From positions 78,077-142,076 of the forward strand of contig JAYZXF010000017.1 of assembly GCA_036141575.1 (NCBI GenBank): a DNA stretch of 64,000 bases, read 5' to 3'. The position numbers and the translations under genes are program-made. Of this stretch, positions 4,954 through 60,676 are shown piece by piece. The stretch is from Pseudomonadota bacterium. GTDB lineage: Bacteria > Pseudomonadota > Alphaproteobacteria > UBA2136 > JAPKEQ01. The notes below the pieces were generated by a model. The model searched no databases and was not told the origin of the DNA. It saw only the letters and a program-made list of their open reading frames with translations. Within the stretch, counting starts at the first letter, position 1; each line of letters starts with the position of its first letter.

Positions 4954-5034
4954 AAGCATCTCCTTGTATAAAACGTGTTCAAAGATTGAAGAGTTCTTTT
5001 TTTATATCGTGGCTTTAAACATGTGGCAATGAAA

Positions 5035-5058
5035 AAGCCCCTTTATAGGAAGGGGCTT
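5035..5058 (-). terminator. rho-independent terminator
   Basis: AAGCCCCTT-tatagg-AAGGGGCTT. Confidence 0.75.
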
Positions 5059-5107
5059 TATCTCGATTTAGCAGTACTGCGTATGGTCTCCTAAGGTAAG
5101 GGTGGGG

Positions 5108-10206: not shown

Positions 10207-10223
10207 AGGATTTATCTAAAAAA

Positions 10224-10245
10224 AAGCCACCCCGAAGGGTGGCTT
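10224..10245. terminator. bidirectional terminator
   Basis: AAGCCACCC-cgaa-GGGTGGCTT with A-run and T-run flanks. Confidence 0.8.
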
Positions 10246-10275
10246 TCTTTATTTACGTCGATTTGCTTTGGCGTT

Positions 10276-17580: not shown

Positions 17581-17676
17581 GGAGAGGCTCCAGAGAAAAA
17601 GAAAATCAAAGATATGAGTTGCCTTATTTTTACAAGGAGTAGAGAGGCTTGGCAAGGTGTTTCCTGCAAAACAAAA

Positions 17677-17692
17677 CAGCCCCGAAGGGCTG
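17677..17692 (-). terminator. rho-independent terminator
   Basis: CAGCCC-cgaa-GGGCTG. T-run on the minus strand. Confidence 0.7.
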
Positions 17693-17703
17693 TTTAGGTT
17701 CGT

Positions 17704-18276
17704 TTATTGGTCCCAGTAGACCCGCTGGTGCGGTTCTTGGCTCCAATAGTCTTCAAATGTGCCACCTGTATGGAGCAGGCCACGTTTGACGAGCTGCTGA
17801 ATGCCTTGTATCTCTGTGGGAGAAAGCTGGCTTTCGCGACGGCGAGGGGAACCTTCCTCTACCTCATAAAACCAGTGATAAATGCCCGTTTCCGGCTGAA
17901 AAATGAGAGCGCTTGCTTCACGGTGCTGAATGGCACGCAGAAGAGGAATCACGTTCTGTTCTTCTTTGCTGAAGGCGCGAGGGGTCACAAATGGTTCAGG
18001 GTTTGCGTGGATATAGTTCCCCAAAATAACCTGAAAAAGGGGCAGGCCTTCTACGTAACGGCCTTTTGTTGAGAGGGTTGTGAGTGCGTTACAAGCAAAG
18101 GCTTCGCACAGCACTTGCCAGTCTCGCAGGCTAATAGCAGGCAGTTTGGATTCACCAAGATGACCCTGCTTTTTAGGCTGGTTGATGTAAACGCCATGTG
18201 AGACTGTGATGAAGAATTGAACATCCATCTCATGGATGCGCTTCACCATTTCAGCAACCGCTTGAGATTGAGACAT
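17704..18276 (-). CDS. hypothetical protein, 'WQxLC' paralog family (B)
   Basis: ATG at 18276 (MSQSQAVAEM...). Motif 'RDWQVLCEAF'. Own terminator 17677-17692. Confidence 0.6.
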   Translation of the reverse strand: MSQSQAVAEMVKRIHEMDVQFFITVSHGVYINQPKKQGHLGESKLPAISLRDWQVLCEAFACNALTTLSTKGRYVEGLPLFQVILGNYIHANPEPFVTPRAFSKEEQNVIPLLRAIQHREASALIFQPETGIYHWFYEVEEGSPRRRESQLSPTEIQGIQQLVKRGLLHTGGTFEDYWSQEPHQRVYWDQ

Positions 18277-18364
18277 GTGAGATCCTTTCAGAAAAGGGAG
18301 GGAGATGTAAGATGTTGGGATTGTATTCAGTTTGGTGGTGTTATGCAAGTACACAAATGAAAAA

Positions 18365-18380
18365 CAGCCCCGAAGGGCTG
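18365..18380 (-). terminator. rho-independent terminator
   Basis: The identical CAGCCC-cgaa-GGGCTG hairpin. T-run on the minus strand. Confidence 0.7.
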
Positions 18381-18392
18381 GTAATAATCGCT

Positions 18393-19121
18393 TCAATCAT
18401 CTGCCGTCCAGAACGAAAAGATGCTCTGAGCTTCGAGGTGATAGTAAGGGGTCTTTTCACCAAGGGTGACAACGCCTTTATCAATCAGGCTTTGTAGAAT
18501 GACCATTTCATTCTCATCAAAGTCAAGCTCAACGCCCCAGTCGCCTGCAAACCAAACACCATGGTAGGGTTTGTTGTCTCTCCATTTATGGATCAGGCAG
18601 CAGGCATTCATATGCTCTGATGTAGAGTAAGCGTCATGGTCTTCCATGAGGTGAGAGGTGTCTTCGCCTGCATCCTCTGCGGCGTAGTACTCCTTAATGC
18701 ACCCCCGCTTAACATGCTGACCAGCAGGGAAGTGCCGTACGCGCGGGCCTGCGCCTGTCATGGCTTTAAGGAGCATGATCTCATCATTGCTGAGAGCTGT
18801 TGGCGAGGCTGGAGGCGGCGTTTCGGGCCTGTCGAGCGCGGACGCCTCAAGAATTTGATAGAATGTGGCGCCTTGCTCTTTCATGAGGCTAAGCTTCCAG
18901 TTACTATTTAAATGGGCGCGACCATCAGAGATGATTTTGCAGAGAAACTGCCACTCTTCAAGTGTAACGGGGAGTAGGTCGTCTTCATTGACGGGCACAT
19001 TTTCTTGGGTGTTCTGTGCAGCAAGTTTATATGCTCTTGTGTCTGACACAAAGTAGTAGCACAGCTGTTTTTCAATGCTGGCAACAATGTACTCTTCAAG
19101 GGCGATGCCTGAAAGTTTCAT
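18393..19121 (-). CDS. hypothetical protein, 'WQxLC' paralog family (C)
   Basis: Motif 'EEWQFLCKII'. Own terminator 18365-18380. Confidence 0.6.
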   Translation of the reverse strand: MKLSGIALEEYIVASIEKQLCYYFVSDTRAYKLAAQNTQENVPVNEDDLLPVTLEEWQFLCKIISDGRAHLNSNWKLSLMKEQGATFYQILEASALDRPETPPPASPTALSNDEIMLLKAMTGAGPRVRHFPAGQHVKRGCIKEYYAAEDAGEDTSHLMEDHDAYSTSEHMNACCLIHKWRDNKPYHGVWFAGDWGVELDFDENEMVILQSLIDKGVVTLGEKTPYYHLEAQSIFSFWTADD

Positions 19122-20140: not shown

Positions 20141-20345
20141 AAGAAGTCTTCGTGGTGCTTCATAAACGAGTGCGTAGTGAAGCGGAGCCAAAACCTTAAG
20201 AGGTTTTGAGCGGTTTAAAGCATTTAAAAATAAGGCGGAGCATTATTTTTGAAAGTAAGGGGTTTAAACCAAGACCATGCTTTGCGAGTTATCGCCTTTT
20301 TGGAGCAGCGTAGCGAATGAAAAAAGCGAGAACATGAAGCAAAGA
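20141..20345. repeat. structured intergenic repeat family, copy A
   Basis: Roughly 80% identical by eye to B 58370-58545 over about 180 nt. Hairpin 20188-20208. Confidence 0.75.
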
Positions 20346-20467
20346 ATTAAGAAATCTCTGATTGGAATTTATCCGCATATTTGCTATATTAAGAAGGTTA
20401 AGGGACGCGCATTCTGTAGCGTTCTTGGGGAAAAATAACAATTATAATGCGTTAAGGGAAACACTTC

Positions 20468-24902: not shown

Positions 24903-24910
24903 ATCGAGAA

Positions 24911-24934
24911 AAGCCCCTTTTGTGTAAGGGGCTT
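24911..24934 (+). terminator. rho-independent terminator
   Basis: AAGCCCCTT-ttgtgt-AAGGGGCTT followed by TTTG. Confidence 0.8.
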
Positions 24935-25015
24935 TTTGTTTGACGTTACATGAGTGGCTCGCTATGTTGAAATCAATTCTGATCTCTTATCTTTTGTTTT
25001 CAAGGAGTTTTTCTG

Positions 25016-26485: not shown

Positions 26486-26818
26486 ATGCTACTCACAACA
26501 ACACCTTATGTTGAAGGTTACACCATTCGCCGTTACGGCCCAATGGTAGCCAGTGAAGCGGTCATGGGTACCAACCTGTTTAAGGATTACTTTGCAAAAG
26601 TACGTGATATTGTTGGTGGACGCTCTGGTGCGTTCCAAAATGCTCTTGCAGATGCGCGTGAATCTATTCTTCATGAAATCCAAGTGCAGGCTCAGCAATC
26701 TGAGTGTAACGCCATTATCGGTATTGATATTGACTACGGTGAGGTATCAGGTGGTGATAAGACAATGCTTCTTGTTGCTGCAACAGGTACAGCGGTTTAC
26801 ATTGAGCCGATTACTTAG
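26486..26818 (+). CDS. ybjQ: YbjQ/UPF0145 family protein
   Basis: 'TTTPYVEGYTI...VVGGRSGAF...NAIIGIDIDY...LLVAATGTAV' follows the UPF0145 pattern. Confidence 0.8.
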   Translation: MLLTTTPYVEGYTIRRYGPMVASEAVMGTNLFKDYFAKVRDIVGGRSGAFQNALADARESILHEIQVQAQQSECNAIIGIDIDYGEVSGGDKTMLLVAATGTAVYIEPIT

Positions 26819-26827
26819 TTTTTTGTA

Positions 26828-27100
26828 GCTTGCTTCCTGTCTTTTATTTTTCAAATATAAAATTTGTAAAATAAAATTCAACGCAAGCTAGAGTCTTGGT
26901 TTAAAACCTTCCTTGTAAAAACAGTACTCCGTCCTGCTTTTAGCTTTTTTAAACCGCCCAAAACGCCTGAACGTTTTGGTTCGGCTACTCGCCTCACACT
27001 CTCATAGGCCAACACTTCTATTGTGTCCTAGTACTTTGCGGAGCAAAGCGCAGCCGGCGCTTAAGGGCGCCGAGCGCAAAGGTACAAAGTAGGGTAAGCT
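26828..27100. repeat. structured intergenic repeat family, copy C
   Basis: Hairpin 26842-26876. Segment 26958-27040 is the reverse complement of B 58331-58409. Hairpin CCAAAACG/CGTTTTGG at 26958-26979. Confidence 0.75.
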
Positions 27101-27608: not shown

Positions 27609-27902
27609 CTATTGTAGTGGTATGCATGAGGATCCATTAAAAAGCATGCCATTATTGGCACATGAGTGAGAATGGCTCTGATTACTCGAGATGCGATCAG
27701 CATCAGCTCTCAAACTTGAGAGTTCTGTATCTAAGACATCAAGCTGACCTGCCAGCACGGTCTTCCAGCTTTTTAGAGCAATACTGAGCGTATTCACTTG
27801 TCTTGAAAGGTTTTCTGTTTCTGCTTTTTGTGCAAGGGCGTCTGCAGGGAATGCCAGCAGTGCCGGTGCTGTAAGTAGAATAAAGGCTTTCTTGAGTTTC
27901 AT
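27609..27902 (-). CDS. secreted minimal member of the 'xxSRQxxxL' coiled-coil family (F8)
   Basis: ATG at 27902 (MKLKKAFILL... signal peptide). 'ENLSRQVNTLSIALKSW', coiled coil, and it ends right after the Cys loop 'CANNGMLFNGSSC'. Confidence 0.6.
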   Translation of the reverse strand: MKLKKAFILLTAPALLAFPADALAQKAETENLSRQVNTLSIALKSWKTVLAGQLDVLDTELSSLRADADRISSNQSHSHSCANNGMLFNGSSCIPLQ

Positions 27903-27916
27903 ATCATGCACTCTTT

Positions 27917-28579
27917 TTAGCATTGCGTGCCGCTTGTGCAGCTTGCAGTTGGGTTTGAGATATTATTTGTATTGGCGTAGTTTAGATAATTGACTGTTTC
28001 TTCCACAGACATAGCACCTGTTGTGGCTTCATTAGAGCCTGCAATATGTTGGCGCACTTCTGCAGCGGCTTGCGCTGCTGTCATGCCTGAACCTTGAAGT
28101 CTGTCCATCTCACCTTGCCAAAAATGTGCTCCAGCTTGGTCTGGTGCGCGGCCGAGCTCATCGCTATAAATTGCGCAAAGCTCAGGTGATGCTGTGCATG
28201 TGTTTTGTGTTGGAGTTGGTGCTGAGGCAACAGTTGGTGCTGAAGCTGATGGGGCAGGCGCTGCGCTGGCTGTTGGTAGCCCTATGCAGTGCGAACCATT
28301 ATAAAGCATATGGCTGTTGGCACAGTCATATGCATTACTTTGTTGCTGAAGCAATCTATCTGCCTCTGTTCTCAATCCCGAAATACTATTGCTGAGTGCT
28401 GTAAGCTCACTGTTTACATTTTGACGAAAGCCGTCAATGGTATTTCTAAGTGAGCCAACTTGCCTAGAAACACCCTCAACAGGCGTGAGCTGTGCTTGAG
28501 ATTCTAGCGTTGTAAGTAGTAGTGTTGGTGTAATAGCAAGTAATGCTTTTCTAAGTAATGCTTTTCTGTTTTTTGACAT
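27917..28579 (-). CDS. secreted coiled-coil family member with DUF4214-like C-terminus (F7)
   Basis: Signal peptide, 'VEGVSRQVGSLRNTIDGF', Cys loop 'CANSHMLYNGSHC', an Ala/Pro linker, then 'IYSDELGRAPDQAGAHFWQGEM' (DUF4214-type motif). Confidence 0.7.
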   Translation of the reverse strand: MSKNRKALLRKALLAITPTLLLTTLESQAQLTPVEGVSRQVGSLRNTIDGFRQNVNSELTALSNSISGLRTEADRLLQQQSNAYDCANSHMLYNGSHCIGLPTASAAPAPSASAPTVASAPTPTQNTCTASPELCAIYSDELGRAPDQAGAHFWQGEMDRLQGSGMTAAQAAAEVRQHIAGSNEATTGAMSVEETVNYLNYANTNNISNPTASCTSGTQC

Positions 28580-28801
28580 ATCTAACCCCTAATAGTTCCT
28601 TAAGGTCTTATAGGTGCCACAACAACTATAGGTATCACTTTGCTGACAGTGTGAAATTTTATAAATAGTACATGTGTTGTGCTATTTTAAAGCTTGCTAT
28701 ACAAAATTCTCTCATGTATATGTTGAAGTACGCATAAAAACGCTCTATTGTGAGCACACTAAATTTTGGTTTCTAAAGATATATAAAAAAGAAATAACCA
28801 T

Positions 28802-29917
28802 ATGAGCTTAACATTTGGATTTGTAAAAGAAACAGCAAAAGGCGAGTGCCGTGTGGCGATGACGCCTGAAGGCATTGGTAAGCTTCTTAAAAGCTACCCA
28901 GACGCAAAGGCTGTGATTCAAAAAGGTGCCGGTGAGGGCGCAGATTTTTCTGATGACGCTTACAAGAAGGCAGGCGCGATTCTTGTTGCCAGCGCAGACG
29001 ATATCTACGCGACATCTGACATTGTGGTGCGCGTAACGCCACCAGCAATGGGTGTGGCTGCACAAATGAAAAAAGGTGCACTTCTACTTGGTAACCTAGA
29101 CCCATTTAACAGCACGAAGCTTTTTGCAGCTCTTGCTAAAAATAAAGTGAACGCGCTGTCTATGGAGCGCATTCCACGCACAAGCCGTGCACAGGCAATG
29201 GACACGCTATCGTCTCAGGCCTCACTTGCAGGCTACCGTGCGGTTATTGAAGCCTCTAGCCTCTACAAAGGCTACTTCCCACTGATGATGACCTCAGCGG
29301 GGAGCTCTCGCCCAGCAAACGTGATTGTGCTAGGTGTGGGTGTTGCGGGCCTTCAAGCCATTGCAACAGCGCGCCGCCTTGGTGCTGCTGTACAAGCGTT
29401 TGACGTACGCCCTGAAGTGAAAGAGCAGGTAGAAAGCCTTGGCGCTAAGTTTATTGATATTGACCTTGGTGAAGATGGTTCAGGTGAGGGCGGTTACGCC
29501 AAAGAGCTGAGCGCTGATGCCAAAGCAAAACAGCAAGCGGCTCTACAAGAGGTTCTGAAGAAGGCTGACGTTGTTGTGACAACAGCGCTGATTCCAGGCC
29601 GTGAAGCCCCTGAGCTGATTACAGAAGACACTGTAAAAGGTATGAAGGACGGTAGCATTATTGTAGATATGGCTGCTGCTGCAGGCGGTAACTGTAAGCT
29701 GACTGAAGCAAACAAAATTGTGATTCGCCATGGTGTTAGCCTTGTGGGTCACACTAACTACCCAAGCATGGCGGCAACGGATGCCAGCCACTTCTACGCA
29801 GGTAACGTACTGAACCTTATGGCGCTCCTTGTGAAGGATGGCCGTCTGGTTTACGACCGTGAAGACGATATTGTTGATGCGGCTCTGAGCGTGTTTGAAG
29901 GGAAGGTGGAATCATGA
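28802..29917 (+). CDS. pntAA: NAD(P) transhydrogenase subunit alpha part 1
   Basis: AlaDH/PNT fold with Rossmann motif 'VIVLGVGVAGLQAIATARRLGA'. Collinear with PntAA. Confidence 0.93.
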   Translation: MSLTFGFVKETAKGECRVAMTPEGIGKLLKSYPDAKAVIQKGAGEGADFSDDAYKKAGAILVASADDIYATSDIVVRVTPPAMGVAAQMKKGALLLGNLDPFNSTKLFAALAKNKVNALSMERIPRTSRAQAMDTLSSQASLAGYRAVIEASSLYKGYFPLMMTSAGSSRPANVIVLGVGVAGLQAIATARRLGAAVQAFDVRPEVKEQVESLGAKFIDIDLGEDGSGEGGYAKELSADAKAKQQAALQEVLKKADVVVTTALIPGREAPELITEDTVKGMKDGSIIVDMAAAAGGNCKLTEANKIVIRHGVSLVGHTNYPSMAATDASHFYAGNVLNLMALLVKDGRLVYDREDDIVDAALSVFEGKVES

Positions 29918-30351
29918 TGATGCCTTGGTATTTCTTTGCAAGCTGGGCTGTTGTTGGTATTGCCATCTTTAACATTGCAGCAAAAAGCATTACAGGCCTT
30001 ACGCCAGCGCTGTTTAACATGCTCTACAGTGGTGTGGTGCTACTTGTGTCTATTAGCTACTTTGCGTTTAGACACTTTACAGGTGAGGCACCGTTTAACG
30101 TGCCAACAGATGCAAAAAGCTGGATGTATGTGATTCTTGCTGGTGTGGGTGTAAACATGATTAACCTTGGTTATGCCGAAATGTATGGCCGTGGTGTTGA
30201 AATTAGTATCGGTGCCAATGCCATTATTATGGCCAGCCTCGTAACCGCCACTCTTATTGGTGTATTTGTATTTAAAGAGCAACTGTCGATGATGAAAGGC
30301 CTTGGTTTATTCCTTGGTGTCATCGCCCTTATTTGCTTCATGAAAGGATAG
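29914..30351 (+). CDS. small polytopic membrane protein inserted in the pnt operon (EamA/DMT-like, weak)
   Basis: ATGA overlap with the pntAA stop. Its stop lies 2 nt before the pntAB ATG. Four or five hydrophobic helices. Confidence 0.6.
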
Positions 30352-30353
30352 AG

Positions 30354-30677
30354 ATGATGGAACTTTCAATGCTAACCGTACTGATTATGGTTTTTGTTCT
30401 GGCCTGCTTTATTGGTTACTTTGTTATTTGGAATGTAACGCCAGCGCTTCACACGCCGCTTATGGCTGTAAGTAATGCCATTAGTGGTATCGTTATTGTG
30501 GGTGCCATTCTGGTGGCAGGTACAGTGGTTTACACAGATGCTCAAGTGATGGGTATCGAGCTTTACAAAATTATCGGTTTCCTAGCGGTCTTCTTTGCAA
30601 GCATTAATATTTTTGGCGGCTTTACAGTCACGCGCCGCATGCTTGCGATGTTTAAATCTAAGTCAAAACCACGCTAG
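30354..30677 (+). CDS. pntAB: NAD(P) transhydrogenase subunit alpha part 2
   Basis: '[23 protein letters not shown]' and '[14 protein letters not shown]' are canonical PntAB motifs. AAGGA RBS. Confidence 0.9.
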
Positions 30678-30689
30678 GACATGGCTGCA

Positions 30690-30790
30690 AATGATCGCTT
30701 GCTCCACTTCCGTTGCTCATGTATCTCAAATACACTGCGCTACGGCTCTCGCAAGCCCTCATTTTCGCTCATGCCTACCATATTTTGAAA
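30690..30790. repeat. possible degenerate family copy (E) in the pntAB-pntB spacer
   Basis: 'gcttgctcc...tcaaata' and 'cgctacggctc' resemble copies C/D and B. Weak. Confidence 0.3.
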
Positions 30791-30824
30791 TGAAATTAAT
30801 ATTAAACTGAAAAGTTAATTTGAT

Positions 30825-32240
30825 ATGCTAAATAGTTATTTTGAAACAATTAAAAACACTTTAAATCTAAATGCAGATGCCTTTGCGCTGCTGTATCTAG
30901 CTTGTGGTGTTCTCTTTATTCTTGGCCTGAAAGGTCTCTCACACCCACGCAGTGCTCGCCGTGGTAACTTGCTTGCGATGCTCGGTATGGGCCTTGCGAT
31001 TCTCACAACGCTGATGCATCCAAGTGTCACTGACTACACATGGATCGTTGCGGGTATTGTTGCTGGTGCCATTGTGGGTGTGCCGATTGCCCTTAAAATT
31101 AAAATGACCTCTATGCCGCAGCTTGTGGCAATCCTCAACAGCTTTGGTGGTCTTGCTGCAGCCCTTATTGGTATCGGTATGCACTTTGCGCTGGCTGGTG
31201 ACACAGCAGGGGACCGCACAGAGATCTTTATGGGTGCATGGATTGGTCTACTTACATTCAGTGGTTCTATCATCGCTTTCTCTAAGCTGAGTGGCTACAT
31301 GAAGAGCGCAGCGATTACCTTCCCAATGCAGCACGTGTTTAACCTACTTGTTGGTTTTGCGATGATTGCAACGGGTGTGCTCTACATTCAGCACGGTGAT
31401 GTCAACATGCTGTACGCATTTGCAGCCATCGCTTTTGTACTTGGTATTCTCATTATTATTCCAATCGGTGGCGCAGATATGCCAGTGGTTGTGAGCCTTC
31501 TCAACAGTTATAGTGGTTGGGCAGCTGTGGCAACAGGCTTCACGCTTGAAAACACGCTTCTTATCATCACTGGTTCTGTTGTCGGGTCTTCTGGTGCCAT
31601 CCTGACGTACGTAATGTGTAAAGCGATGAACCGTAGCTTCTTTAACGTTCTGCTTGGCGGTTTTGGTGCTGACGATGATGCAGGCGCAGCAGCTATGGCG
31701 ACAGGTGGTACAGTTAAGCAAGCCAGCGCAGACGATGCAGCCTTCATGATGGAAAACGCAAACAGCGTGGTTGTTGTACCGGGTTACGGTATGGCGGTGG
31801 CGCAAGCACAGCATGCTCTACGTGAGGTGATGGATATTCTGGATGAGAAGAACATTAAAACACGCTTTGCCATTCACCCTGTTGCGGGTCGTATGCCAGG
31901 GCATATGAACGTTCTTCTCGCTGAAGCAGATGTACCATATGAGAATGTGGCTGAAATGGATAATATCAACGCAGACTTCTCAACAACAGATGTTGTGTTG
32001 GTAGTGGGTGCAAACGATGTTGTGAACCCTGACGCCAAAAATGTGAAGAGCAGCCCACTATACGGTATGCCGATTCTTGAAGCGTACAAAGCGAAGACAG
32101 TTTACGTTGTAAAGCGTAGCATGAACGCAGGTTACGCAGGCGTAGATAACGCACTCTTTACAATGGATAACACCTCTATGATCTTTGGAGACGCCAAGGA
32201 AGTTGCAGAACGCCTTGCCGCCGCTCTTAAGATGAACTAG
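30825..32240 (+). CDS. pntB: NAD(P) transhydrogenase subunit beta
   Basis: 'VVVPGYGMAVAQAQH', 'FAIHPVAGRMPGHMNVLLAEA' and 'VLVVGANDVVNP'. Confidence 0.95.
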   Translation: MLNSYFETIKNTLNLNADAFALLYLACGVLFILGLKGLSHPRSARRGNLLAMLGMGLAILTTLMHPSVTDYTWIVAGIVAGAIVGVPIALKIKMTSMPQLVAILNSFGGLAAALIGIGMHFALAGDTAGDRTEIFMGAWIGLLTFSGSIIAFSKLSGYMKSAAITFPMQHVFNLLVGFAMIATGVLYIQHGDVNMLYAFAAIAFVLGILIIIPIGGADMPVVVSLLNSYSGWAAVATGFTLENTLLIITGSVVGSSGAILTYVMCKAMNRSFFNVLLGGFGADDDAGAAAMATGGTVKQASADDAAFMMENANSVVVVPGYGMAVAQAQHALREVMDILDEKNIKTRFAIHPVAGRMPGHMNVLLAEADVPYENVAEMDNINADFSTTDVVLVVGANDVVNPDAKNVKSSPLYGMPILEAYKAKTVYVVKRSMNAGYAGVDNALFTMDNTSMIFGDAKEVAERLAAALKMN

Positions 32241-32256
32241 AGAGATACAAAAGAAA

Positions 32257-32280
32257 AAGCCCCTGCAATAGCGGGGGCTT
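32257..32280. terminator. terminator after pntB
   Basis: AAGCCCCTGC-aata-GCGGGGGCTT. Confidence 0.75.
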
Positions 32281-32703
32281 TTATCGATCTTCAATGATCC
32301 AGAAAAATTTAGCAATTTCTGGAATCGGTTGGCCAAGGAGGCGTCTTTCAATGATGTGATCTGGCGCGTGCCCACTTATTCCAAAGAAATGGCAGGCGTC
32401 AAAATAGCCCATAAATCTAAGAATAAGAAGATGCCCAACAAACAAAAAGAAAGAGGGGACAATAAAAACCATAAGGAGTGCTTCACTATACCCAACAAGG
32501 AGGCTAGAAAAAATAAGCATCACCAGCAAAACACCTTCACCATAGGTTTTATATTTGCGAACTTCGAGGCCTTTTCGAATGGTCTTTTTATATTCAGGGA
32601 TTTTATCCCACATAAGGATTGCTCCTGAGACTTGGAAAAGGAAAACATATTTGAATGACTCGAGTGTAGGGGAGATAGGCTGGAATGAAAAGGGGAAAAG
32701 CAA
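32281..32703 (-). CDS. possible membrane protein (up to 140 aa)
   Basis: AT-rich ORF with two or three hydrophobic segments. Start is unclear. The antisense ORF 32329-32628 competes with it. Confidence 0.35.
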   Translation of the reverse strand: MLFPFSFQPISPTLESFKYVFLFQVSGAILMWDKIPEYKKTIRKGLEVRKYKTYGEGVLLVMLIFSSLLVGYSEALLMVFIVPSFFLFVGHLLILRFMGYFDACHFFGISGHAPDHIIERRLLGQPIPEIAKFFWIIEDR

Positions 32704-32743
32704 AACACCCCGCTTTTAGGCGGGATGTTCTGGTTGTCGAGTG

Positions 32744-33022
32744 TCAGGCGATGGCCCGGGCGATGGCAAATACATTGTAGTAATGCGGAATATCATACTG
32801 TTTGCACAGGGCATCTGCACGATTCCTAACGTGCATGAACTTGAGGTTCATGGCGAGTGCGGCCAAACCGGCAATCACAGCAATAGAGTTGTTGAAGCCC
32901 ATGAAGCTCAGAGCCACACTGATGGTCGCAATAACCACCAGAATGTAGGCGACAGTTTGAAACAGAACGCCTTTGGCGATGGCGCGACGATCTTCCATGG
33001 GGATGGGGTGTGCGTTGGACAT
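32744..33022 (-). CDS. small 2-TM protein, 'LCK..GI.P' paralog family (P1)
   Basis: ATG at 33022 with AAGGAGG 5 nt upstream. Two TM helices. Tail 'ALCKQYDIPHYYNVFAI'. Confidence 0.65.
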   Translation of the reverse strand: MSNAHPIPMEDRRAIAKGVLFQTVAYILVVIATISVALSFMGFNNSIAVIAGLAALAMNLKFMHVRNRADALCKQYDIPHYYNVFAIARAIA

Positions 33023-35886: not shown

Positions 35887-36465
35887 ATGACTGAAGATGT
35901 AATGACAATCCGCACCGAGCGGACACCTAACCCTAACAGCCTGAAATACAAGCTAGGTAAACTCATTTTGCCGGGCGGTAGCGCGAACTTTCCAACACCT
36001 GGAACAGCAGAACGCTCACCTCTTGCAAAGCGTTTGTTTACAGTGTCTGGCGTAACAGGTGTGTTTATTGGGAGTGATTTCTTCACCATTACAAAAGATG
36101 AAGAGTTTCTATGGCCGGCCATTAATGAAGGGATTGCTCCAGTCCTTGAAGAGTTCTTTGAGAGTGGGGACCCTGTACTGCAAGGTTCAGCGGAAGCACC
36201 AAAGCTAGAAGATATTGGCGATGGCGACGCGGACCCTGTTGTGATTTCTAAAATTAAAGAGCTGATTGATACGCAAGTGCGTCCTGCTGTGGCACAAGAC
36301 GGTGGTGACATTGTTTACCGTGGTTATGATGAAGGTATTGTTTACCTAGAAATGCATGGCGCATGTAGTGGTTGCCCAAGCTCTAGCGTAACGCTTAAGC
36401 AGGGGATTGAAACCATGCTTCAGCATCACTTGCCTGACGATGTGAAGGAAGTACGAGCAATTTAA
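35887..36465 (+). CDS. NFU1/NifU-type Fe-S cluster scaffold protein
   Basis: Nfu_N-like 'IRTERTPNPNSLKY' and NifU C-terminal domain 'VRPAVAQDGGDIVY...MHGACSGCPSSSVTLKQGIE'. Confidence 0.88.
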   Translation: MTEDVMTIRTERTPNPNSLKYKLGKLILPGGSANFPTPGTAERSPLAKRLFTVSGVTGVFIGSDFFTITKDEEFLWPAINEGIAPVLEEFFESGDPVLQGSAEAPKLEDIGDGDADPVVISKIKELIDTQVRPAVAQDGGDIVYRGYDEGIVYLEMHGACSGCPSSSVTLKQGIETMLQHHLPDDVKEVRAI

Positions 36466-36470
36466 AAAAG

Positions 36471-36484
36471 CGCCCTTGCGGGCG
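36471..36484. terminator. terminator after the NFU-type gene
   Basis: CGCCC-ttgc-GGGCG followed by T9. Confidence 0.7.
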
Positions 36485-36529
36485 TTTTTTTTTGAAAAGT
36501 TAATTTTTAAACTAAGCAAATAAAACAAG

Positions 36530-38724: not shown

Positions 38725-38890
38725 TTTCTTTGCTTGCTTTCCATCTTTTATTTTTCAAACATAAAGTCCAATGCAAGCTCTTGGAAAGCGTGAAGCATTC
38801 AACAGCATGGGCATTTTCAAGATAACCTTCACGGGGGCTATCATTTTACAAATTTTACATTTGAAAAATGATAGGGTGAGAGTGAAGAAG
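38725..38890. repeat. structured intergenic repeat family, copy D
   Basis: The left part resembles the left of copy C ('gcttgctttccatcttttatttttcaaacataaa'). Hairpin 38827-38887 is the reverse complement of the B hairpin, with different complementary outer stems. Confidence 0.7.
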
Positions 38891-38895
38891 AATAA

Positions 38896-57305: not shown

Positions 57306-57329
57306 AAAGCCACCCCGAAGGGTGGCTTT
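57306..57329. terminator. bidirectional terminator after tpsA
   Basis: AAAGCCACCC-cgaa-GGGTGGCTTT. Confidence 0.8.
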
Positions 57330-57342
57330 CTTTTTATATCGC

Positions 57343-58062: not shown

Positions 58063-58159
58063 AGCGGCCTCCTGTGTCTAAAGTGAAGTTAAAGATAGTT
58101 CTAGTGAATAAATTATGGTGATGGTGAGGTGTTTATTCAAGATGTGTTGTTTTTTTACT

Positions 58160-58545
58160 CTTCACTTTCATTCCACCATTTTTCAAATTTAAAATTTGTA
58201 AAATGGTGGACCCCGTGAAGTAAGTCTTGGTGCGCAAGTTTTTAAGTATTTTAGGTCTGCTTACATCCCTAAAATAGCTCTTGTGCACCGCCGTAGCGTC
58301 TGAACGCTACGGCTCGCTTTTTCAGCTCGCGAAGTACTAGGAGATAACAGAGATATTGGCCTGATAGAGTGTGAGGCGAATAGCCGAGCCAAAACCTTAA
58401 GAGGTTTTGAGCGGTTTGAAGCAGTTAAAAATAAGACAGAGGATTATTTTTACTATAAATGCTTTAAACCAAGACTGTACTTTGCGGGCTATCGTCTTTT
58501 TGAAGTAGTGAAACGAATGAAAAAAGCGAGAGCGTAAAGCAAAGA
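58160..58545. repeat. structured intergenic repeat family, copy B (longest)
   Basis: AT-rich hairpin 58173-58209 inside the outer stem CTTCAC/GTGAAG (58160-58220). Hairpin GCCGTAGCG-tctgaa-CGCTACGGC. Hairpin 58389-58409. Internal 9-bp inverted repeat 58223-58231 / 58468-58476. Homologous to copies A, C and D. Confidence 0.8.
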
Positions 58546-58601
58546 GAGAAAAAGAGAGTCTAGGAAGCGCCAAGGTGCAGGCTTGATCTCCAACATATAA
58601 A

Positions 58602-58645: not shown

Positions 58646-60676
58646 TTAGTTAAACACAGCAGTTGGGCCTTTGGCACCTGTGCCGCCTTTAAAACGTGCT
58701 TTTTTGAAAGCTGCGTTTGAGCCAGCGCCTTTGCTACCTTTAAAGCTACCGCCTTTGCCCTTAAATGGCTTGTTGCCAGCAGATGAACGATCATCGCCAT
58801 CACGCTTATTGAAGCCACCGCTCATGCGCTTACCAGCTGGTGTACCGCGTCCGCGTGTACCGTAAGTGCGTGCGCCATCATCCTTTTTGAATGGGCTCTT
58901 TTTACGTGTTGAGTCTGTTTGCGTCATGCGCTTCTTCTGCTTGTCGTGCATTTTAGCTGGTGCGCGAGACTCACTGCGATCTTCTCCGAAAGAACGGTTA
59001 CCATCGCGGTCGCCGAAGCTGCGCTTCTTGTCGCCGTAAGAGCGGTTACCATCGCGGTCGCCAAAGCTGCGCTTCTTATCGCCGAAAGAGCGGTTACCAT
59101 CGCGGTCGCCAAAGCTGCGCTTCTTGTCGCCGAATGAACGGTTGCCATCACGGTCACCAAAGCTGCGCTTCTTGTCGCCGAATGAACGGTTGCCATCGCG
59201 TTCGCCAAAGCTACGCTTCTTGTCACCGTATGAACGGTTGCCATCACGGTCACCAAAGCTGCGCTTCTTGTCACCGTAAGAGCGGTTGCCATCGCGGTCA
59301 CCAAAGCTACGCTTCTTATCACCGAAGTCGCGCTTGTTACCAAACTCACGCTTGTCGCCAAAGTCGCGCTTTTCAAATGAACGCTCACCATCTTTACGGA
59401 AGCTCTTACGCTCGCCGTCTTTTTTGAATGAACGTCTGTCATCTCTATCGCCGAAGCTACGCTTCTTATCGCCGTATGAATCACGGTTACCATCTTTAGC
59501 GCCGTAGCCGCCTTTGCGGTGTGATTTTGCCTTACGATCTTGGAATGTACGCTCTTTGCGAGGCTTAGATGTTGGTGCGTTAGATGTTTCACCACCCCAT
59601 ACAAGGCGTTCAATTGCTTTCCACTTGCCGTTTTCTTTCTTGGTAATGTACGCCAGAGCGTGACCCGTAGCACCGGCACGTGCTGTACGGCCAATACGGT
59701 GGATGTAATCTTCTGGGCATTGTGGAAGGTCATAGTTAATCACGTGCTGAATGTGAGGAATATCAAGACCACGTGCCGCAACGTCTGTTGCCACAAGGAT
59801 TTGGTATTTCTCTTTTCTGAATGCATCTGTTACGCGCTCACGTTTGTTGTGACGAAGGTCACCGTGGATTGCAGCTGCTTTAAAGCCTTCTTTCTTCAGC
59901 TTATCAGCCATGCGCTCAGTGCCGTACTTTGTCTTTACGAACATGATGATTGAGCCTTCACGGCCTGAGAGTTCACCAAGCAGGTCGTCGTACTTCTCAG
60001 CATCAGTCACGCGTTTTGTTTGGTGATCAATGTTTTCAGCAGGCTTTGTTGTTGCGCCAATGGCAATACGCTCAGGGTTGTTGAGGTAGTTCTTCGCAAG
60101 AGACATGATGTTCTTTGGAAGTGTTGCACTAAATAGAAGCGTTTGGCGCTCGGCTGGCATGTGGCTCACAATTTCTTCAATCTGAATGCTGAAGCCCATG
60201 TCGAGCATGCGGTCTGTTTCATCAAGAACCAGGAAGTGGCAGTTGTTAAGCTTGAGGCTGCGACGGTTCAGGTGGTCGTTAATACGGCCTGGTGTACCAA
60301 CAATAATACGTGGACGGAATGAAAGGCTTTTCAGCTGTTTGTGCATAGAGTCACCACCAATAAGTAGGCATGTGTTAATGCCAGAGCGGTGAGGGAGGAA
60401 GCCTTTAATGTTGTCTTGTACCTGCGCGGCAAGTTCACGTGTTGGTGTCACAACAATAGCTGTGTCTTCTTCGTTTTCAAGGAGGTGGTTCACCATCGGA
60501 ATACCGAAAGCACCTGTTTTACCCGTACCTGTTTGGGCAGAACCAAGGATATCGCGACCTTGCATCGCGAAAGGAATTGTTTTTTCTTGAATTGGAGTTG
60601 GAGATTCAAAACCCAGTTTTGTTAGGGCATGAGTCAAATCTTCAGAAAGCCCAAGTTGGGCGAATGTTTGCGTCAT
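58646..60676 (-). CDS. DEAD-box RNA helicase (RhlE-like) with repetitive basic C-terminal tail
   Basis: Q-motif 'GFESPTPIQ', motif I 'AQTGTGKT', motif II 'DETD', 'SAT', and 'HRIGRTARAG'. The tail has 7 x 'GDKKRSFGDRDGNRS[YF]'. Confidence 0.92.
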   Translation of the reverse strand: MTQTFAQLGLSEDLTHALTKLGFESPTPIQEKTIPFAMQGRDILGSAQTGTGKTGAFGIPMVNHLLENEEDTAIVVTPTRELAAQVQDNIKGFLPHRSGINTCLLIGGDSMHKQLKSLSFRPRIIVGTPGRINDHLNRRSLKLNNCHFLVLDETDRMLDMGFSIQIEEIVSHMPAERQTLLFSATLPKNIMSLAKNYLNNPERIAIGATTKPAENIDHQTKRVTDAEKYDDLLGELSGREGSIIMFVKTKYGTERMADKLKKEGFKAAAIHGDLRHNKRERVTDAFRKEKYQILVATDVAARGLDIPHIQHVINYDLPQCPEDYIHRIGRTARAGATGHALAYITKKENGKWKAIERLVWGGETSNAPTSKPRKERTFQDRKAKSHRKGGYGAKDGNRDSYGDKKRSFGDRDDRRSFKKDGERKSFRKDGERSFEKRDFGDKREFGNKRDFGDKKRSFGDRDGNRSYGDKKRSFGDRDGNRSYGDKKRSFGERDGNRSFGDKKRSFGDRDGNRSFGDKKRSFGDRDGNRSFGDKKRSFGDRDGNRSYGDKKRSFGDRDGNRSFGEDRSESRAPAKMHDKQKKRMTQTDSTRKKSPFKKDDGARTYGTRGRGTPAGKRMSGGFNKRDGDDRSSAGNKPFKGKGGSFKGSKGAGSNAAFKKARFKGGTGAKGPTAVFN
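58988..59323 (-). repeat. 7 x 48-bp in-frame tandem repeat inside the helicase gene
   Basis: Units 58988-59035, 59036-59083, and so on to 59276-59323, each encoding GDKKRSFG[DE]RDGNRS[YF]. Degenerate relatives extend to about 59500. Confidence 0.9.

Follow-up and report, generated by a model that had tools for sequence, protein, structure and literature searches.

A single-domain EamA-like gene between pntAA and pntAB and a lineage-specific palindrome before pntB in an alphaproteobacterial transhydrogenase operon

The locus described here lies in a 64,000-nucleotide stretch of an alphaproteobacterial assembly (contig JAYZXF010000017.1, positions 78,077 to 142,076; hereafter the window), where the open reading frame (ORF) table and the raw sequence give a four-gene operon in the order pntAA-X-pntAB-pntB. 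The second gene, referred to here as X and deposited as the hypothetical protein MEC9292335.1, stands between two subunit genes of a proton-translocating transhydrogenase that, in its split-operon form, is regarded as a complete three-polypeptide machine. As in split pntAA-pntAB-pntB operons of the Rhodospirillum rubrum/Thermus thermophilus type, all three subunits are present, intact and in canonical order; the window differs by the extra gene that separates pntAA from pntAB and by a gap of 147 nt between pntAB and pntB, where the median in such operons is 4 nt. The features of the operon are as follows.

28802-29917, + strand: pntAA, 371 aa, the soluble NAD(H)-binding dI subunit of a split proton-translocating transhydrogenase
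29914-30351, + strand: gene X, 145 aa, with one EamA-like domain and five predicted transmembrane helices, in effect a "half" DMT transporter
30354-30677, + strand: pntAB, the small membrane subunit of domain dII, 107 aa from the ATG at 30354 or 106 aa from the ATG at 30357
30678-30824: the pntAB-pntB gap, 147 nt
about 30679-30795: a lineage-specific insertion of about 117 nt, a long imperfect palindrome with main arms at 30680-30702 and 30751-30773
30796-30824, + strand: the ancestral pntB leader, AU-rich (TTAATATTAAACTGAAAAGTTAATTTGAT), with no strong Shine-Dalgarno (SD) sequence and conserved in relatives
30825-32240, + strand: pntB, 471 aa, the membrane dII plus NADP(H)-binding dIII subunit, NCBI MEC9292337.1
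32250-32281, + strand: a probable intrinsic terminator, a GC-rich hairpin followed by a T-run (AAAAAGCCCCTGCAATAGCGGGGGCTTTT), read from the sequence

The identities of the pnt genes, first proposed in a preliminary description made from the letters of the window, are borne out by solid Pfam matches: AlaDh_PNT_N (1.4e-36) and AlaDh_PNT_C (1.3e-60) for pntAA, which also matches PRK09424 in NCBIfam (6e-119), PNTB_4TM (5e-34) for pntAB, and PNTB (9e-186) for pntB. PntAB and PntB are full length, with no missing helices. The raw sequence also confirms the junctions as first described, with the 145-aa ORF of X overlapping the pntAA stop through an ATGA and ending in a TAG at 30351, two bases before the ATG at 30354, and with 147 nt between pntAB and pntB. 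X and pntAB are in different reading frames, and the pntAB start used in relatives corresponds to the ATG at 30357 (MELS...). The strong SD of X (GGAAGGTGGA) is located within the 3' end of pntAA and pntAB is preceded by AAAGGA, so that these two genes have good SD sequences, whereas pntAA and pntB have AU-rich leaders and neither carries one.

The tight packing that the preliminary description took to be normal for split pnt operons can be set against a baseline of 74-75 other such operons, recovered from metagenomes by a PntAB scan that returned no close relatives of the window lineage (best identity 69%). Median gaps in this baseline are about 50 nt for pntAA-pntAB and 4 nt for pntAB-pntB, approximate figures given that start codons were assigned automatically. 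Of 75 operons, 7 have a pntAB-pntB gap above 100 nt, and one other locus only carries an X-like gene; the window's arrangement is unusual, not unique.

Profile comparison and structure modelling both point to the DMT/EamA superfamily as the home of X. Window X scores 18.2 bits (E 0.0031) against Pfam EamA (PF00892), short of the gathering cut-off of 28.2, in a match that spans the whole domain (X residues 5-142 against model positions 3-133 of 135). Of the 32 aligned homologues, 24 match EamA at E <= 0.01, the strongest at 2.4e-11, and most profile matches of X carry a precomputed PF00892 annotation. An AlphaFold2 model built on the 32-homologue alignment has five helices at a pLDDT of 93 and can be superposed on one repeat of the solved ten-helix DMT transporters LicB, YddG and TPT. 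Judged by profile and model, X is a DMT/EamA superfamily member that corresponds to one repeat of a ten-helix DMT protein, and the entry MEC9292335.1 can be refined from "hypothetical protein" to single-domain DMT/EamA-like membrane protein. The EamA affinity guessed at in the preliminary description was thus right at the level of the superfamily. X shares the length (about 140-150 aa) and the five helices of single-domain DMT members (EamA PF00892, BAT) and shows EamA-type motifs, namely a K at the end of the first transmembrane helix (TM1) and F-x-E...G-x-x-L before and in the last helix; it differs from them in that its own Pfam match is sub-threshold and in its position between pnt subunit genes. 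A family of proteins with five transmembrane segments (TMS), called BAT, was reportedly set out within TCDB 2.A.7 by Jack, Yang and Saier in 2001. No match of X to PNTB_4TM, PNTB or AlaDh_PNT was found, and none in NCBIfam.

X also bears a partial likeness to the SMR transporters EmrE and Gdx, which are dual-topology antiparallel homodimers of about 110 aa with four helices and an essential Glu in TM1. A profile search of PDB sequences touches these proteins over TM2-TM4 only (E about 0.003), including the FKE loop; the SMR Pfam model is touched by only 4 of the 32 homologues, and one clade-2 homologue is labelled "EmrE-like" by JGI. X resembles SMR proteins in its small size, its near-zero charge bias and this TM2-TM4 match, but has five helices rather than four and no membrane-embedded Glu in TM1. 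Membership of the SMR family (PF00893) was rejected on its length of 145 aa, its five helices, the lack of a TM1 Glu and the restriction of the similarity to TM2-4. The sole invariant residue of X, E122, sits in the F-K-E loop, outside the membrane. Lys plus Arg residues on the two membrane faces number 4 and 3 in window X and 107 and 113 summed over the family, a near-zero bias that is compatible with dual topology. Ten-helix DMT proteins have an inverted-repeat architecture, and because of this we would predict X to be an antiparallel homodimer.

X is a real gene under purifying selection. Synteny in relatives had been named beforehand as the test of the ORF, and every related contig found (loci L001-L006, L091, L092 and L083) carries an intact X at the pntAA/pntAB junction, always in the order pntAA-X-pntAB-pntB, with the following identities to window X.

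L001-L003: 95%
L004-L006: 44-46%
L091 and L092: 43%
L083, a much more distant operon: 28%

In all these lineages the start of X overlaps or abuts the pntAA stop, as ATGA, TAATG or TAAGATG. Because X is intact and conserved at the same junction in its relatives, the possibility that it is a chance or decaying reading frame falls away. The ratio of nonsynonymous to synonymous divergence (dN/dS) within clades is 0.085 for the window against L001 and 0.064 for L004 against L005; between clades it reaches 0.25-0.33, several times the within-clade value, pointing to episodic acceleration or to replacement of the allele. When 5.8 billion proteins were searched by a word index, X matches came from two clusters only, at 95% and 44% identity, and an exhaustive HMMER search of 1.84 billion representatives returned 32, nearly all 140-150 aa long; within the window, hmmsearch detected X as the only member of its family. 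The X genes of the compared loci lie at 29914-30351 in the window, 3216-3653 in L004 and 4001-4429 in L091, and the related contigs are labelled "uncultured Magnetococcales bacterium" or "Alphaproteobacteria bacterium".

Between the two roles first offered for the extra protein, a fourth subunit or accessory of the transhydrogenase and a transporter hitch-hiking in its operon, the evidence favours hitch-hiking, and we put the probability that X is a passenger transporter gene of the pnt operon rather than a dedicated Pnt subunit at about 0.55. Against L004-L006, PntAA, PntAB and PntB of the window are 94%, 96% and 94% identical and X is 44-46% identical (pntAB is 96% identical to both L001 and L004); against L091 the values are 88% for Pnt and 43% for X, and against L083 they are 64-70% and 28%. 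The nonsynonymous divergence (dN) is 0.5 for X and 0.036 for Pnt. A dedicated subunit is unlikely because the divergence of X outpaces that of the Pnt subunits about tenfold, and also because only 1 of the 74 other split pnt operons has an X-like gene, namely L083, which lies outside the window's clade. Coupling between X and pntAB is dispensable, since the sister strain L001 tolerates 346 nt between them. That pnt operons can host plainly unrelated genes follows from L044 (1-3189), which is interrupted at both junctions and reads pntAA, a 312-aa SBP_bac_3 solute-binding protein, pntAB, a 124-aa DgkA diacylglycerol kinase, pntB.

The wider family of X speaks in the same direction. Distant members sit co-directionally and tightly in unrelated housekeeping operons (ten contexts, viewed with no statistical control), at L007 4468-9486, L008 2-4965, L095 3-2558, L096 3470-6520, L097 3587-4444 and L093. 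The contexts include the following.

gatC-(78 aa)-X-gatA-EamA-gatB
sufB-(220 aa)-X-sufD-sufS-sufU
FtsX/LolC-like-X
lpdA-X-lipA
fabA-X-fabB-fabI
spoT-DUF2062-acpS-X
unknown gene-X-methyltransferase

Because X-family members occupy these unrelated operons, a dedicated Pnt subunit becomes less likely still, and the contexts suggest that the family may generally settle in constitutive operons.

Several observations weigh against reading X as a passenger transporter. The order pntAA-X-pntAB is kept down to 64-70% Pnt identity with X start/stop-coupled to pntAA throughout, and stable gene order between subunits of one complex often signals physical or functional linkage. A Foldseek search of the PDB with the X model gave no significant match, window X itself falls below Pfam's EamA threshold, and no transport substrate can be named for X, the search matches containing no characterized close homologue; we likewise know of no substrate for any member of its subfamily. 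In a rough neighbour-joining tree the X of L083 falls outside the window clade, although at 25-33% identity this tree is too poorly resolved to separate one insertion into pnt from two. If the placement is real, the junction would have been colonized on two occasions, and this would point to either a Pnt-related role or a site preference.

X could be a fourth or accessory subunit, acting as a membrane chaperone or assembly factor of dII in the manner of AtpI, or as a modulator of the proton path, and made in step with the complex through translational coupling. Its position between subunit genes, conserved across five lineages even where Pnt identity falls to 64-70% and accompanied by overlapping or adjacent stop and start codons, is what such a role would lead one to expect, as are the purifying selection on X and its possible second, independent arrival at the same junction. 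We nevertheless consider this role unlikely: X evolves roughly tenfold faster than its supposed partners, is missing from 73 of the 74 other split pnt operons, has homologues in gat, suf, fab, lpd-lipA and acpS operons, and has the fold of an autonomous transporter repeat; PntAB and PntB lack no helix that it might replace, and 346 nt part it from pntAB in L001. The likeness to AtpI/UncI of the atp operon is an analogy only. Both are small polytopic proteins co-transcribed with a proton-translocating complex, but the two are unrelated in sequence and fold, and while atp operons commonly carry AtpI, X occurs only in a narrow clade of pnt operons.

X could also be a transporter whose substrate is tied to the NADPH supply, exporting a reduced or toxic metabolite or taking up a compound whose use consumes NADPH, so that co-expression with the transhydrogenase would be adaptive. 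The long retention of X in the operon with translational coupling and its DMT fold fit this proposal, and other hosts of the family have redox or cofactor chemistry (suf, lpdA-lipA, fabA-fabB, acpS). The gatCAB and lolC-like contexts are off this theme, however; X has no conserved polar or charged intramembrane residue, its invariant E122 belonging to a loop motif common to all DMT/SMR proteins; and its rapid divergence argues against a precisely shared substrate. On balance we regard an NADPH-linked substrate as improbable.

Under the passenger reading that we prefer, X would be a long-resident, expressed gene of the operon, its start tied by translational coupling to the end of pntAA, and through this coupling it would borrow the constitutive expression of a housekeeping operon, as its relatives would in other operons. 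The protein would form a homodimer, probably antiparallel with dual topology, and would carry a small solute through the inner membrane without involvement of the transhydrogenase.

The second interruption, between pntAB and pntB, is a genuine lineage-specific insertion with a strong hairpin. Junction alignment shows it to be absent from L001, L004 and L091, where the pntAB-pntB gaps are 25, 23 and 25 nt, and places it at the ancestral end of pntAB, whose C-terminus reads KSKSKPR* in the window and KSKKS* or KSKPKT* in relatives. The final 29 nt before the pntB ATG are conserved, with a weak candidate SD, GAAAAG, 12 nt upstream in the same leader in relatives that lack the insertion. The earlier remark that the spacer leaves no convincing ribosome-binding site before pntB is misleading: there is no strong SD, but the weak site is ancestral, because its leader is conserved in relatives without the insertion, and was not made by it. 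The probable course of events is that a palindrome of about 117 nt entered recently, after the split from a 91%-identical sister strain, at the ancestral end of pntAB, shifting its stop slightly and breaking the 23-25-nt proximity of pntAB to pntB. The AU-rich leader of pntB would have stayed intact and would now have to support de novo initiation. We infer that the insertion is probably neutral or nearly so.

As RNA the spacer folds at -42.3 kcal/mol on the + strand (z -3.46 against shuffles) and at -53.3 kcal/mol on the - strand (z -3.92). Rfam gave no spacer match at E <= 1 (28000-33000 searched) and no family at the gathering threshold anywhere in the window. Within 30678-30824 there is no consensus promoter (-35/-10) or terminator (hairpin plus T-run). 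No target-site duplication or direct repeat flanks the insertion, its inverted arms are internal rather than terminal, and neither the 64-kb window nor the 534 kb of fetched loci contains a second copy of the palindrome. An integron attC at the spacer ends was rejected by eye, as the core sites RYYYAAC...GTTRRRY do not fit. Like REP/BIME, ERIC and MITE-like palindromes (MITE, miniature inverted-repeat transposable element), the spacer is a non-coding, imperfect palindrome between co-transcribed genes that varies between strains; it differs from them in having no second copy, no terminal inverted repeat with target duplication and no family membership.

Intergenic palindromes such as the REP elements of malE-malF form RNA hairpins that influence transcript stability in other operons, and the spacer could plausibly act in this way, as a REP-like hairpin that, placed at the 3' end of pntAB, would hold back 3'-5' exonucleases or guide cleavage by an RNase and so uncouple the stability and translation of pntAA-X-pntAB from those of pntB. 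A strong hairpin on the transcribed strand directly after the pntAB stop is consistent with such a function. The palindrome is, however, found in the window only, neither the 91%-identical sister strain nor any other relative having it, and it is without a further copy in the sequence covered. It folds equally well on the other strand, as expected of a palindrome at the DNA level, and PntA and PntB are needed 1:1, so differential expression would bring no obvious benefit. We think a regulatory function doubtful and favour a neutral or nearly neutral insertion.

The preliminary description had seen in the spacer a resemblance to an intergenic repeat family of the window. This family is real, with copies of about 200-250 nt and a conserved core of about 125 nt, and it is distributed as follows.

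20150-20357, + strand: full copy
26810-27060, - strand: full copy
58293-58558, + strand: full copy
58152-58231, 38818-38891 and 36460-36516: partial copies in the window
L001 4446-4684, L004 5412-5560 and L006 6064-6270: copies in relatives

RNAalifold on five copies gives a hairpin, CCAAAACC-TTAAGA-GGTTTTGG, and a long second helix, with double changes keeping 10 of 34 pairs. No Rfam family matches the repeat, which may be a structured small RNA, an element of untranslated regions or a MITE.

The idea that the spacer is a diverged member of this family draws on short words in common (CGCTACGGCTC; GCTTGC...GCAAGC), on a hairpin architecture that looks comparable by eye (GCTT(T)GCGAG...GAGCAA(A)GC), and on the fact that the family does invade the pnt operons of relatives: L001 has a copy between X and pntAB (E 5e-18 to window copies), and L004 and L006 have one directly 3' of pntB. 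Proper alignment dispels the resemblance. Local alignment of the spacer to four repeat regions is no better than that of shuffled sequences, the 11-nt match CGCTACGGCTC being equalled in 30 of 200 shuffles; sensitive blastn finds no match; and an nhmmer profile of five copies finds nothing in 30678-30824 at E <= 100 with filters off. The assignment was rejected on these three results, and kinship between spacer and repeat family is very improbable.

Other features of the window can be noted briefly. The hairpin at 32250-32281 probably closes the operon as an intrinsic terminator, judging by its sequence; a simple consensus terminator scan did not pick it up, and repeat family D11 unites it with further terminator-like hairpins from the window. 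Similar GC-rich hairpins with T-runs lie at 10223-10255, 57306-57338, 17673-17705, 18361-18393, 5028-5059, 24904-24935 and 32250-32281, with near-identical sequences (AAAGCCACCCCGAAGGGTGGCTTT, AAAACAGCCCCGAAGGGCTGTTT, AAAGCCCC...GGGGCTTT), and their appearance is that of intrinsic terminators sharing one style, not of mobile repeats. Upstream of pntAA and divergent from it are two overlapping ORFs, 27609-27923 (- strand, 104 aa) and 27917-28579 (- strand, 220 aa), with signal-peptide-like N-termini and a common motif (...LSxxxSxLRxxADR...CANxxMLxNGSxCI); neither has a Pfam match. The equivalent upstream block of L004 holds a 271-aa ORF (360-1175) with DUF4214. Positions 58935-59511 hold about 8-9 tandem copies of a 48-nt unit (16 codons) that are 76-93% identical (families D1-D3), presumably a repetitive protein-coding segment. 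No transfer RNA or transfer-messenger RNA was found in the window.

In summary, what is new here is the operon arrangement; the DMT/EamA superfamily and the split pnt operon are both known, and full-text literature searches turned up no paper that reports a gene separating pntAA from pntAB or connects pnt with EamA in a natural operon. Three different pnt junctions took insertions in sister lineages, in the form of a palindrome, a structured repeat and whole genes, and because different junctions did so, pnt genes need not be tightly packed. In practical terms the gain is modest, namely a better annotation of MEC9292335.1. The most interesting by-product is the recurrent residence of the X family inside housekeeping operons. 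X and its relatives might, on a speculative view to which we give little weight, represent an unrecognized class of dual-topology, five-helix DMT "half-transporters" that repeatedly settle in such operons (pntAA|pntAB possibly twice, gatC|gatA, fabA|fabB, sufB|sufD, lpdA|lipA) and that in pnt may have taken on a lineage-specific accessory role for the membrane domain of the transhydrogenase. A fourth, coupled membrane protein kept across deep divergence in the operon of a three-polypeptide enzyme would be either an unrecognized accessory of that enzyme or a transporter gene that parasitizes the expression of a housekeeping operon.

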